Of a DNA stretch of 64,000 bases, positions 37,759-44,308 are shown in pieces; the first letter of the stretch is position 1; each line of letters begins with the position of its first letter. This DNA comes from Escherichia coli (lineage in GTDB: Bacteria; Pseudomonadota; Gammaproteobacteria; Enterobacterales; Enterobacteriaceae). Below the pieces are notes generated by a model. It ran no database searches. It saw only the letters and a list, made by a program, of their open reading frames with translations, and was not told where the DNA came from. The position numbers and the translations under genes were made by a program. Where the stretch lies: the NCBI RefSeq assembly GCF_030384885.1, contig NZ_CP128613.1; one strand, 5' to 3'.

Positions 37759-39234
<1,476 letters not shown>

Positions 39235-39237
39235 AGG

Positions 39238-39429
39238 CTACTTGGTCAATAGCAGCTTGCCAGCCTGAGTTTTACGGAGCAGATATTCTTGCCCGTCATG
39301 ATCGATAATCAGTTTGCCATCCGGACCTAACAGTGTCTGGCTGGTAATTCGCCGAATGGGCTGCGGGGAGGCGGTCTTGTGATTGGCATCCGTTTCAGGC
39401 GTGAGTTTTCTGCTATCCGTATAACGCAT
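39238..39429 (-). CDS. ydiE: HemP-like small protein YdiE
   Basis: Internal ATG of track ORF 39238..39456 gives the 63-aa [63 protein letters not shown]. Confidence 0.7.
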
Positions 39430-39451
39430 AAAAATTAATAATAATTGATAT

Positions 39452-39470
39452 AACAATGATTCTTATTATC
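39452..39470 (-). promoter_or_regulatory. Candidate Fur box upstream of ydiE
   Basis: Reverse complement GATAATAAGAATCATTGTT matches the 19-bp Fur consensus GATAATGATAATCATTATC at about 15 of 19 positions, 25-40 bp upstream of the ydiE start. Confidence 0.45.
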
Positions 39471-39560
39471 AATATTCTGGCGGGCCAGAGCAAGCAGTAA
39501 TTTGTTGAGAAGACAACAAGTTGCGCAGAAATGCCCATTCCGTCAGGAATGGGCACGCAT

Positions 39561-40607
39561 TCAGAAGCGGGTATCAACCGCAGAGGCGAGTTTTTCGACC
39601 AGGCGTTCGGTATCTTCCCAGCCCAGACACGGGTCGGTAATCGATTGACCGTAAGTGAGCGGCTGACCGCCGACGATTTTTTGCGTTCCTTCGCGCAGGA
39701 AACTTTCCGCCATAATTCCAGCAATCGCCGTAGAGCCATTGCGGATTTGCTGACAAATATCCTCACAAACTTCTAACTGGCGACGATGCTGCTTCTGGCA
39801 GTTGCCGTGGCTGAAATCCACCACCAGATGTTCAGGTAAATCAAACTCGTGCAACGTATCGCAGGCAGCGGCGATATCATCCGCATGGTAATTCGGCTTT
39901 TTGCCGCCACGCATAATAATGTGGCCATACGGATTGCCGCTGGTCTGATAGATGGTCATCTGACCATTTTTGTCTGGCGAGAGGAACATATGGCTGGCGC
40001 GGGCTGCGCGGATAGCATCCACGGCAATCCGCGTGTTGCCATCGGTACCATTTTTAAAACCTACCGGACAGGAGAGTGCCGAAGCCATTTCACGGTGGAT
40101 CTGACTTTCGGTAGTACGTGCGCCAATCGCGCCCCAACTGATTAAATCAGCAATAAACTGACCGGTCACCATATCGAGGAACTCAGTCGCGGTAGGGACG
40201 CCCAGCTCATTGACCTGTAAAAGTAATTTGCGCGCCAGCTCCAGACCGTGATTTACCCGATAGCTGCCGTTTAAATCCGGATCGGAGATTAGCCCTTTCC
40301 AGCCGACTACAGTTCGTGGTTTTTCAAAATAGGTGCGCATTACGATTTCCAGCCGTGACTGGTACTGGTTGCGCAGCGACTGCAGACGGGTGGCGTACTC
40401 CATTGCAGCGGTGAGATCGTGGATCGAGCAGGGGCCAATAATGACCAACAGTCGCTTATCTTCACCATTCAGTATTTTTTCAATTCTGCGGCGGGAGTCG
40501 GTGACATGGGTGGCGACGCCAGGCGTTACGGGATACCGTAGCGCGAGTTCGGCGGGCGTTACCAGGCTCTCAATACGCGCAGTACGGAGTTCGTCAGTTC
40601 TGTTCAT
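39561..40607 (-). CDS. aroH: DAHP synthase, tryptophan-sensitive isozyme
   Basis: 348-aa ORF MNRTDELRTARIESLVTPAELALRYPVTPGV... (class I DAHP synthase). Confidence 0.95.
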   Translation of the reverse strand: MNRTDELRTARIESLVTPAELALRYPVTPGVATHVTDSRRRIEKILNGEDKRLLVIIGPCSIHDLTAAMEYATRLQSLRNQYQSRLEIVMRTYFEKPRTVVGWKGLISDPDLNGSYRVNHGLELARKLLLQVNELGVPTATEFLDMVTGQFIADLISWGAIGARTTESQIHREMASALSCPVGFKNGTDGNTRIAVDAIRAARASHMFLSPDKNGQMTIYQTSGNPYGHIIMRGGKKPNYHADDIAAACDTLHEFDLPEHLVVDFSHGNCQKQHRRQLEVCEDICQQIRNGSTAIAGIMAESFLREGTQKIVGGQPLTYGQSITDPCLGWEDTERLVEKLASAVDTRF

Positions 40608-40752
40608 TACAAGTCTCAGAAATTTGTTGCTTCTACGGCAGGACTACCGGGAAGTGATGCGCATCACGATAAACCAATCGCAGCTGATTTCAAGTGCGAG
40701 GTGTGTCACACCTCGCCGGGTGGTTAGCATGATAACAAAAAAACAAGTTAAT

Positions 40753-40770
40753 GCACTAGTTCTCTAGTAC
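40753..40770 (-). promoter_or_regulatory. TrpR operator of the aroH promoter
   Basis: Reverse complement GTACTAGAGAACTAGTGC contains the paired CTAG half-sites of the Trp repressor operator; lies about 150 bp upstream of aroH and overlaps the last codons of ppsR. Confidence 0.6.
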
Positions 40771-41597
40771 ATTCGACGACTAAGGCCCATGATATCAAGG
40801 ATCTTGGTGGCAATCTCTTCTACCGAATAATTGGTACTGTTAATCCATGGGATCTGATTCTTACGGTACAACGCTTCCACTTCCGCGACTTCCATCCTGC
40901 ACTGACGAAGCGAGGCATAGCGACTGTTCTCCCGACGTTCCTCGCGAATCGCCGCCAGACGTTCCGGGTCGATAGTCAGGCCGAACAATTTATGCTGAAG
41001 CGGTTTGAGCGACGCGGGTAGCACCAGATTATCCATATCGTCGGCAATAAAGGGGTAGTTTGCCGCGCGGATACCAAATTGCATTGCCAGATACAGACTG
41101 GTGGGGGTTTTACCACAGCGAGAAACGCCGAGCAGGATCACCTGAGCCTGGTCCAGATTGCGCAACGAAATGCCGTCGTCATGGGCAAGGGTGTAATCAA
41201 TCGCCGCAATGCGCGCATCGTATTTATTGAGATTATTAGGGTTAAGGCCATGGGTACGATGAGCAATCGGCGTTGGATCCAGTTTCATCTCTTGCTGTAG
41301 CGGGGCAACCAGCGCCTGAACGATATCCTGGCAAAAGCCTTCACTTTGCAAGATGATGGCGCGAATCTCCGGCAACACGATGGAGTAGAAGACCAGTGGG
41401 CGCACACCTGTCTGGTGATAAATTGCGTCAATCTGATCCTTCACTGCCCGTGCACGGCTCTCATTTTCGACAAACGGCAGCGTAATGCTGCTGATAGTGA
41501 CGGGAAATTGTGACATTACTGCGTGTCCTAATACCTCCGCAGTTATTGCCGTACCATCAGAAATATAAAAAACGTGGCGATCAACAGCATTATCCAT
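40764..41597 (-). CDS. ppsR: PEP synthetase regulatory protein (bifunctional kinase/pyrophosphorylase)
   Basis: 277-aa [34 protein letters not shown] recognised as YdiA/PpsR; divergent from ppsA. Confidence 0.9.
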
Positions 41598-41827
41598 TTT
41601 GTTCTTCCCGTAATGCAGACATAATTCTATGAAAGCATAAATTAAAAACGCACAGAAGCGTAGAACGTTATGTCTGGTTTATAAAATGAACCTTCAATTT
41701 TATTTTTTATGAAAACAGCATTTCATTTTTACGGTTTCGTTTATACCGATGGTTTATGTGGAAATTGTCGAAGAGAGCAGATTTGCGCAACGCTGGGATC
41801 AGTCTTAAAAAGTAAAAAAATATATTT

Positions 41828-41843
41828 GCTTGAACGATTCACC
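41828..41843 (+). promoter_or_regulatory. Candidate Cra (FruR) site in the ppsA promoter
   Basis: GCTTGAACGATTCACC resembles the Cra consensus GCTGAAWCGWTTCAGC, about 90 bp upstream of ppsA. Confidence 0.5.
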
Positions 41844-41929
41844 GTTTTTTTCATCCGGTTAAATATGCAAAGATAAATGCGCAGAAATGTGTTTCTCAAA
41901 CCGTTCATTTATCACAAAAGGATTGTTCG

Positions 41930-44308
41930 ATGTCCAACAATGGCTCGTCACCGCTGGTGCTTTGGTATAACCAACTCGGCATGAATGATGTAGACAGGGT
42001 TGGGGGCAAAAATGCCTCCCTGGGTGAAATGATTACTAACCTTTCCGGAATGGGTGTTTCCGTTCCGAATGGTTTCGCCACAACCGCCGACGCGTTTAAC
42101 CAGTTTCTGGACCAAAGCGGCGTAAACCAGCGCATTTATGAACTGCTGGATAAAACGGATATTGACGATGTTACCCAGCTTGCGAAAGCGGGCGCGCAAA
42201 TCCGCCAGTGGATTATCGACACTCCCTTCCAGCCTGAGCTGGAAAACGCCATCCGCGAAGCCTATGCACAGCTTTCCGCCGATGACGAAAACGCCTCTTT
42301 TGCGGTGCGTTCCTCCGCTACTGCAGAAGATATGCCGGACGCTTCTTTTGCCGGTCAGCAGGAAACTTTCCTCAACGTTCAGGGTCTTGACGCCGTTCTC
42401 GTGGCAGTGAAACATGTATTTGCTTCTCTGTTTAACGATCGCGCCATCTCTTATCGTGTGCACCAGGGTTACGATCACCGTGGCGTGGCGCTCTCCGCCG
42501 GTGTTCAGCGGATGGTGCGTTCCGACCTCGCATCTTCTGGCGTGATGTTCTCCATTGATACCGAATCCGGCTTTGACCAGGTGGTGTTTATCACTTCCGC
42601 TTGGGGCCTTGGTGAAATGGTCGTGCAGGGCGCGGTTAACCCGGATGAGTTTTACGTACATAAACCGACACTGGCGGCAAATCGCCCGGCTATCGTGCGC
42701 CGCACCATGGGGTCAAAAAAAATCCGCATGGTTTACGCGCCGACCCAGGAGCACGGCAAGCAGGTTAAAATCGAAGACGTACCGCAGGAACAGCGTGACA
42801 TCTTCTCGCTGACCAACGAAGAAGTGCAGGAGCTGGCAAAACAGGCCGTACAAATTGAGAAACACTACGGTCGCCCAATGGATATTGAGTGGGCGAAAGA
42901 TGGCCACACCGGCAAACTGTTCATTGTGCAGGCGCGTCCGGAAACCGTGCGCTCACGCGGTCAGGTCATGGAGCGTTATACGTTGCATTCACAGGGTAAG
43001 ATTATCGCCGAAGGCCGTGCTATCGGTCATCGCATCGGCGCGGGTCCGGTGAAAGTCATTCATGACATCAGCGAAATGAACCGCATTGAACCTGGCGACG
43101 TGCTGGTCACTGACATGACCGACCCAGATTGGGAACCGATCATGAAGAAAGCATCTGCCATCGTCACCAACCGTGGCGGTCGTACCTGTCACGCGGCGAT
43201 TATCGCTCGTGAACTGGGCATTCCGGCGGTAGTGGGCTGTGGTGATGCAACAGAACGGATGAAAGACGGTGAGAACGTCACTGTTTCTTGTGCAGAGGGT
43301 GATACCGGTTACGTCTATGCTGAGTTGCTGGAATTTAGCGTGAAAAGCTCCAGCGTGGAAACGATGCCGGATCTGCCGTTGAAAGTGATGATGAACGTCG
43401 GTAACCCGGACCGTGCTTTCGATTTCGCCTGCCTGCCGAACGAAGGCGTGGGCCTTGCGCGTCTGGAATTTATCATCAACCGTATGATTGGCGTCCACCC
43501 ACGCGCACTGCTTGAGTTTGACGATCAGGAACCGCAGTTGCAAAACGAAATCCGCGAGATGATGAAAGGTTTTGATTCTCCGCGTGAGTTTTACGTTGGT
43601 CGTCTGACTGAAGGGATCGCGACGTTGGGTGCTGCGTTTTATCCGAAGCGTGTCATTGTCCGTCTCTCTGATTTTAAATCGAACGAATACGCCAACCTGG
43701 TCGGTGGTGAACGTTACGAGCCAGATGAAGAGAACCCAATGCTCGGCTTCCGTGGCGCGGGACGTTATGTTTCCGACAGCTTCCGCGACTGCTTCGCACT
43801 GGAGTGTGAAGCGGTGAAACGTGTGCGCAACGACATGGGACTGACCAACGTTGAGATCATGATCCCGTTCGTGCGTACCGTAGATCAGGCGAAAGCGGTG
43901 GTTGAAGAACTGGCGCGCCAGGGGCTGAAACGTGGTGAAAACGGGCTGAAGATCATCATGATGTGTGAAATTCCGTCCAACGCCTTACTGGCAGAGCAGT
44001 TCCTCGAATATTTCGACGGCTTCTCAATTGGCTCAAACGATATGACGCAGCTTGCGCTTGGTCTGGACCGAGACTCCGGCGTGGTGTCTGAACTGTTCGA
44101 TGAGCGCAACGATGCAGTGAAAGCACTGCTGTCGATGGCGATTCGTGCCGCGAAGAAGCAGGGCAAATATGTCGGGATTTGCGGTCAGGGTCCGTCCGAC
44201 CATGAAGACTTTGCCGCCTGGCTGATGGAAGAGGGGATCGATAGCTTGTCCCTGAATCCGGACACTGTGGTACAAACCTGGTTAAGCCTGGCTGAACTGA
44301 AGAAATAA
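41930..44308 (+). CDS. ppsA: Phosphoenolpyruvate synthase
   Basis: 792-aa ORF with phosphohistidine domain motif ([21 protein letters not shown]). Confidence 0.97.

Follow-up and report, generated by a model that had tools for sequence, protein, structure and literature searches.

The TrpR operator of aroH and the 3' end of ppsR in Escherichia coli: bases in common and two promoters

Introduction

The genes ppsR and aroH follow one another on the minus strand of the window, by which we mean the whole 64 kb stretch of Escherichia coli DNA that was analysed, and at the junction between them lies a palindrome that takes in the ppsR stop codon. This raises the question of what the palindrome does, whether it is an operator for aroH, a terminator for ppsR or an accident of the last ppsR codons, and of what follows for the two genes from the bases that are held in common. 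TrpR is known to repress aroH (PMC5343134; PMC8265036), and only a few Enterobacterales have aroH and aroL under TrpR control, the conserved core of the regulon being trpE and trpR (PMC5343134). In the window ppsR encodes a protein of 277 aa (40764..41597, minus strand; NF049928, 430.6 bits against a cut-off of 350) and aroH encodes the Trp-sensitive DAHP synthase of 348 aa (39561..40607, minus strand; NF009396, 701.7 bits against a cut-off of 463). The classical papers on TrpR binding are those of Kumamoto et al. in 1987 and Klig in 1988, and the K-12 aroH operator and promoter were reportedly described by Zurawski et al. in 1981, Grove & Gunsalus in 1987 and Kumamoto et al. in 1987, with the operator reportedly covering the promoter's -35 region.

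The palindrome is the known aroH operator

The palindrome occupies 40753..40770 on the minus strand (GTACTAGAGAACTAGTGC) and consists of two CTAG cores 8 bp apart; read from 40770 to 40753 its arms are GTACTAG and CTAGTGC on either side of a central AGAA. Its symmetry is imperfect, with 6 of 7 positions pairing in the 7-bp arms and an asymmetric centre, and the junction as a whole reads, on the minus strand, ...CGA ATG TAC TAG AGAACTAGTGCATTAACTTG... The aroH ATG is at 40607, so that the 3' edge of the palindrome is 146 nt and its centre about 154 nt upstream. The site has the form of a TrpR operator, a dyad of about 18 bp with ACTAG-N4-CTAGT and cores at the expected distance, and it agrees with the idealised trp-operator consensus GTACTAGTTAACTAGTAC at 15 of 18 positions and with the K-12 trp operator GTACTAGTTAACTAGTTC likewise at 15 of 18. 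It is also the sole trp-operator-like site in the window: the exact 18-mer occurs once (0 expected), CTAG-N4-CTAG occurs once against 0.21 expected, and a search with the idealised 18-mer allowing up to 3 mismatches returned the aroH site only, with 0.01 matches expected.

The same 18-mer is found, identical and syntenic, at 1788272..1788289 of K-12 MG1655, where it is presumably the characterised aroH operator. The geometry is also that of K-12, in which ppsR (1787445..1788278) and aroH (from 1788435) are separated by a 156-bp spacer, the operator is placed identically with respect to the ppsR stop and the aroH ATG, and the upstream promoter has the same -10 hexamer, TATCAT. Three bases differ from K-12 in the spacer of this promoter (cattaacttgttttttt vs cattagcttattttttt) and none in the operator. 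Given the identical 18-mer and the same geometry, the site is that of K-12 aroH, carried here by a different lineage of E. coli. The palindrome is thus a long-known operator, a classic of bacterial gene regulation and in itself ordinary, and any annotated E. coli genome shows that it overlaps the ppsR stop; regulatory sites that extend over the 3' ends of upstream genes are common in compact bacterial genomes. The sequence-only reading had named it as the aroH TrpR operator, on the strand of both genes and about 150 bp from the aroH ATG, and had it overlapping the last codons and the stop of ppsR. The sequence agrees on the positions, and the identity with K-12 together with the match to the trp operator argues for the name.

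The 341-bp stretch around the site has a match in 5422 of 5426 complete E. coli genomes, with an identity of 100% in strain 2013C-4282 and of 95-99% in most other E. coli. Identity of at least 99% over 40560..40900 is seen in only 17 of the 5422, and the window therefore belongs to a less common E. coli lineage.

Two promoters upstream of aroH

Two aroH promoters, aroHp1 and aroHp2, are named together with guide-RNA targets and start-relative positions in the supplement of a CRISPRa preprint (bioRxiv 10.1101/2022.07.14.500123). The two starts were back-calculated by locating these targets in the K-12 genome, and the convention can be regarded as calibrated since it lands aroHp2 exactly on an independently mapped start. 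The mapped start comes from the K-12 data of Kim et al. (2012), obtained from M9-glucose mid-log cells with enrichment of triphosphate 5' ends; in that genome-wide dataset the sole aroH start has 414 reads and lies 51 nt upstream of the ATG, and the upstream sequence given for it there ends ...TTGAAATCAGCAGCGATTGGTTTATCGTGATGCGCA. This start is that of aroHp2.

The downstream promoter, aroHp2 (40658..40693, minus strand), combines the mapped start with the sole sigma-70-like match that a simple scan found in the region: TTGAAA (40693..40688), a 16-nt spacer and TATCGT (40671..40666), with transcription beginning at the A at 40658 (K-12 1788384) and a leader of 51 nt. It has no TrpR site. The core of aroHp1 is placed at 40724..40757 on the minus strand, with a start back-calculated to the A at 40724 (K-12 1788318), a 117-nt leader and hexamers that are inferred, the -35 being AGTGCA at 40757..40752, inside the right half of the operator, and the -10 TATCAT at 40734..40729. 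The aroHp2 start is 66 bp downstream of that of aroHp1. Counted from the aroHp1 start the operator takes up -46..-29, with its centre at -37.5, and counted from that of aroHp2 it takes up -112..-95. Judged from these positions it belongs to aroHp1; it overlaps a core promoter element of an aromatic pathway gene insofar as the inferred -35 is correct. A transcription start far from the palindrome had been named beforehand as the finding that would count against an operator. The aroHp2 start is such a start, with the palindrome centre 103.5 bp upstream of it, whereas the aroHp1 start is not.

We consider it about 92% probable, from the sequence of the site and its place, that the palindrome is the classical aroHp1 operator, at which Trp-bound TrpR represses that promoter. 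Because the operator lies at -46..-29 repression by blocking of the -35 region is likely: with the right half of the dyad overlapping the inferred -35, bound TrpR would exclude RNA polymerase from aroHp1, a mechanism that combines the geometry of the site with what is established for TrpR. Transcription from aroHp2 would probably then supply aroH independently of tryptophan. Tandem promoters of which one is controlled by a repressor, here aroHp1 upstream of an aroHp2 that lacks the TrpR site, are a common arrangement. The operators of trpR, mtr and aroL belong to the same regulon and are of the same dyad type (PMC5343134). The trp operator itself, which is bound by the same repressor, has the CTAG-N4-CTAG dyad in common with that of aroH in addition to the matching bases counted above. 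In its own promoter the trp operator covers the -10 region, and the aroH operator differs in sitting over the -35 region and in having 7 bp in common with an upstream coding sequence.

The sequence-only reading had both the promoter and the operator embedded in the end of ppsR. This stands for 7 of the 18 operator bp, but it is too strong for the core promoter, as the -35, the -10 and the start of aroHp1 are all intergenic, and the single promoter that it pictured was incomplete in that aroHp2, between the operator and the gene, was missed.

Conservation within the Enterobacteriaceae

A PpsR scan with one genome per species gave 80 loci from roughly 30 Enterobacteriaceae genera, in all 80 of which aroH is directly downstream of ppsR, and with the window and K-12 added these make a set of 82 sequences. 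In 79 of the 82 the motif GTAC-TA[AG]-N4-CTAGTNC is found at the ppsR stop, and a site that begins at the same base, as counted from that stop, agrees with the idealised trp operator at 13-16 of 18 positions. The non-coding CTAG of the right half is invariant in the 76 distinct Enterobacteriaceae sequences and the T.C that follows it is nearly so, whereas free variation is seen both in the 4-nt operator spacer and in the intergenic sequence that flanks the site. In 78 of 79 loci a -10-like hexamer, which in most of them is TATCAT, TATTAT or TATGAT, is found 22-27 nt past the right CTAG.

The remaining three loci have the operator displaced from the ppsR stop, by 209 bp (L033), 1459 bp (L040) and 24 bp (L070), and in each an operator matching at 14-15 of 18 positions still adjoins aroH. 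The operator is therefore kept in all the orthologous promoters of the set, and that it stays by aroH when the stop is separated from it ties its function to aroH and not to the termination of ppsR.

The displaced loci differ in what has come between. The Enterobacter sp. ENT03 locus (L070, 3335..3380) has a full dyad, GAACTAGTAAGCTAGTAC, past the ppsR stop, and L033, from a metagenome-assembled genome, has GTACTAACAAGCTAGTAC past a TAT-TAG ending. In Kosakonia sacchari (L040, 3335..4945) an insertion of about 1.5-1.6 kb separates the ppsR stop from the operator with GTACTAA on both sides of it, and contains two short ORFs whose leaders are of the double-glycine type (MKELTAHEMQYASGG... and MKQLSNDEMQAVSGAG...) and which have the look of microcin genes.

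Some variation is also seen at aroHp2. In the Citrobacter freundii group (L007, L008, L010-L013 and L016) the ppsR-aroH spacer is 125-126 bp, 30 bp shorter, and aroHp2 is without a -35 hexamer, its -10 TGATATTGT having the look of an extended -10; a similar TGnTATTGT is found in L015 and L036. The wider gene order, with ppsA divergent and followed by ppsR and aroH (39561..44308 in the window; L002-L091), holds in 89 of 89 related loci across the Enterobacterales. As AroH consumes PEP and PpsA and PpsR control its synthesis, this linkage may be functional.

Bases shared by ppsR and the operator

The left half-site is made up of the end of the ppsR reading frame: operator base 1 is the G of the Met codon, bases 2-4 are the terminal Tyr277 codon TAC (40767..40769, minus strand) and bases 5-7 are the stop codon TAG (40764..40766, minus strand), so that these 7 bp are used twice, by the gene and by the operator. 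The constraint that this places on ppsR was assessed in 78 distinct Enterobacteriaceae ppsR coding sequences, which have 191 codons with an invariant, degenerate amino acid. In only two of the 191, Gln90 and Tyr277, is the third base invariant as well. The Tyr277 codon is TAC in 78 of 78, whereas each of the five other invariant Tyr codons is a mixture of TAC and TAT. Among the 78 coupled loci the only stops are TAA and TAG, never TGA, TAG being used by Escherichia, the Citrobacter freundii group and Franconibacter and TAA by the remainder of the set, and the left half-site is accordingly CTAA and not CTAG in most genera. TAT is sometimes the last ppsR codon in loci that have no operator, a displaced one or one with a disrupted left half, as in L033, L036, Dickeya and Erwinia.

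As Tyr277 is always TAC and the stop always TAA or TAG in these sequences, the shared bases appear to serve ppsR and the operator alike, and the third-position C of Tyr277 appears, on this comparison, to be constrained by the operator too. The dual use, in the Tyr277 third base and in the choice of stop, is a small new result and a tidy example and does not amount to a new principle: it is a clean and quantified overlap of a gene with a regulatory site, in which one third-position base and the stop choice are frozen across 78 sequences. It has a practical side, in that any alteration of the ppsR 3' end, such as a C-terminal tag, a recoded stop or genome-wide TAG replacement, would change the aroH operator as well.

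Two minor points may be added. Codon 90 of ppsR (41328..41330 in the window, minus strand) is CAG in 78 of 78. In Shimwellia pseudoproteus (L089, 2328..2350) the ppsR stop is TGA, giving a left half-site of CTGA, with the right half-site at the usual spacing (GTACTGATAAACTAGTAC); it is the sole TGA stop among operator-bearing loci and a later exception to the stop rule of the 78.

Outgroups and the origin of the operator

Seven genera outside the Enterobacteriaceae were used as outgroups, namely Serratia, Yersinia, Dickeya, Erwinia, Pantoea, Affinibrenneria and a Mixta-like genome. The order ppsA, ppsR, aroH is kept in all seven, and the outgroup PpsR has Met and then Tyr or Phe as its last two residues (...MY or ...MF), with the ...ATG TAY stop ending itself found in some of these lineages. 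The ppsR-aroH spacer contains no CTAG in Serratia, Yersinia, Dickeya, Erwinia or Pantoea, where the best operator match is 10 of 18, and none was found in the spacer of the Mixta-like locus; Affinibrenneria has one CTAG at its TAG stop, within a 10-bp GTACTAGTAC, without a full operator. The aroHp2 block is, on the other hand, nearly unchanged in Serratia, Yersinia, Erwinia and Pantoea (GGTTGAAT, 16 nt, TATTGTGATCGCCATCACTTCCCGG...), so that aroHp2 is kept in 4 of the 7 genera, all of them without the operator. A similar block can be made out by eye in the Mixta-like spacer.

The simplest reading of this comparison, and one that the sequences suggest, is that aroHp2 is ancestral and that aroHp1 and the operator were added in the Enterobacteriaceae. 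The operator would have been built on a ppsR ending that already existed, with G-TAC-TAA taken over as the left half-site. An operator found only in the Enterobacteriaceae fits the report that few relatives of E. coli have TrpR control of aroH (PMC5343134), and the present comparison extends its range to most of the family. Control of aroH is apparently layered, an older promoter without a TrpR site lying downstream of a Trp-repressible promoter that is particular to the Enterobacteriaceae.

Other readings of the palindrome

It would seem doubtful, though it is the alternative to be taken most seriously, that the operator is real and yet physiologically minor, most aroH transcription coming from aroHp2. 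This would account for aroHp2 being the only aroH start in the Kim et al. (2012) data, from which aroHp1 is possibly a minor contributor in vivo, and it fits the wider conservation of aroHp2 as a promoter. That support comes, however, from a single dataset and a single growth condition, and the strict conservation of the operator right half and of the aroHp1 -10 across the Enterobacteriaceae argues for selection on aroHp1 and on its control by TrpR; the literature also has TrpR repressing aroH (PMC5343134; PMC8265036). There is next to no chance that the palindrome has no regulatory role and is a mere by-product of the terminal ppsR codons. Its left half is indeed largely dictated by a conserved Met-Tyr-stop ending, G-TAC-TAA/TAG, which is also found in 4 of the 7 outgroup genera without an operator, but the ending does nothing to explain a non-coding right half, CTAGT.C, that is invariant, nor the identity of the whole site with K-12 at a syntenic position, and with an expectation of 0.01 in the window a chance origin was rejected.

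A palindrome at a stop codon might also, or instead, act as an intrinsic terminator of ppsR, as an RNA hairpin followed by a U-rich run. It is the sole terminator-like match that a simple scan found in 39100..42000, and it folds to a hairpin of -11.8 kcal/mol (z = -2.4) followed by AACUUGUUUUUUUGUU; the stem is, however, AU-rich, with 3 GC among 10 pairs, and the U run starts 5-6 nt past it. Moreover the palindrome is found throughout the family but the T run only in Escherichia, Citrobacter and Salmonella, so that in most palindrome-bearing genera a hairpin with a U tract is not kept. Invariant CTAG cores around a variable spacer, with no compensatory changes, are what a protein site would give, and in the loci with insertions the palindrome travels with aroH and not with the ppsR stop. 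No sense-strand 3' end is recorded for ppsR or aroH in the Term-seq supplement of PMC7815308, in which low ppsR expression could hide one. In view of the AU-rich stem and the offset and unconserved U run we judge termination at the palindrome unlikely, and binding of TrpR to an aroHp1 operator remains the preferred reading.

Read-through and cross-talk

The sequence-only reading had further proposed that ppsR read-through and TrpR occupancy interfere with one another because operator and stop overlap, which could take two forms, TrpR blocking or truncating ppsR transcripts, or ppsR transcription dislodging TrpR and feeding into aroH. The scan found no convincing terminator between the ppsR stop and aroH, which makes read-through plausible, and the adjacency of the two genes is kept in 89 of 89 related loci. 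Against this, ppsR starts have 8 and 7 reads in M9 glucose compared with the 414 of aroHp2, roughly 25-fold fewer, so the contribution of read-through in that medium would be small, and aroHp2 already gives expression that is independent of TrpR. The operator and the ppsR stop can also be separated without the loss of either, as in L033, L040 and L070. TrpR is a small, fast-dissociating repressor and is not known to stop a polymerase during elongation. Interference of either form is considered highly improbable.

A broader proposal is that the overlap is functional as such: a Trp-repressible promoter was set on the ppsR ending, the choice of stop (TAG in Escherichia, TAA elsewhere) tunes TrpR affinity, and bound TrpR or the hairpin alters the ppsR 3' end or its read-through. 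The evolutionary part of this proposal is reasonably supported and the regulatory cross-talk is speculative, and taken as a whole we would give it very long odds. Were it so, a link would run from tryptophan status to the regulator of PEP synthase, and AroH has PEP as one of its substrates.

Leader and inter-promoter structures

Several further structures lie between the operator and the aroH ATG. Between the two promoters there is a perfect hairpin, GCGAGGTGTG-A-CACACCTCGC (40696..40716, minus strand), at about +9..+29 of the promoter 1 transcript, with a folding energy of -15.9 kcal/mol and z = -4.7. GC-rich hairpins of other sequence are found at the same spot in Enterobacter, Lelliottia, Leclercia, Silvania and Erwinia, and the hairpin may be a relic of a ppsR terminator or a structure of the aroHp1 leader.

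A search of 40300..41100 against Rfam at a permissive threshold gave no match, and RNAalifold on a plain MAFFT alignment of the leaders gave no consensus structure, the latter because single-base indels in the loop shift the stem out of register. When 52 distinct aroHp2 leaders are folded one by one, nearly all are predicted to form a conserved stem-loop close to their 5' end (40630..40654, minus strand; CUUC-CGGUA...UGCCG-GAAG). Paired changes in the two arms of the stem preserve the pairing, such as CAG/CUG in Kluyvera and UGG/CCA in E. albertii.

Finally, a palindrome that resembles a CRP site, GTGATGCGCATCAC (40654..40667, minus strand), runs across the aroHp2 start from -9 to +5; across 72 distinct sequences its arms are at least 90% identical and its centre is more variable. 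The outgroups have TGTGA-N6-TCACT at this place, which is likewise CRP-site-like, and a second copy of the palindrome is found between the promoters in Kosakonia (L024) and in L070, L047 and L034.
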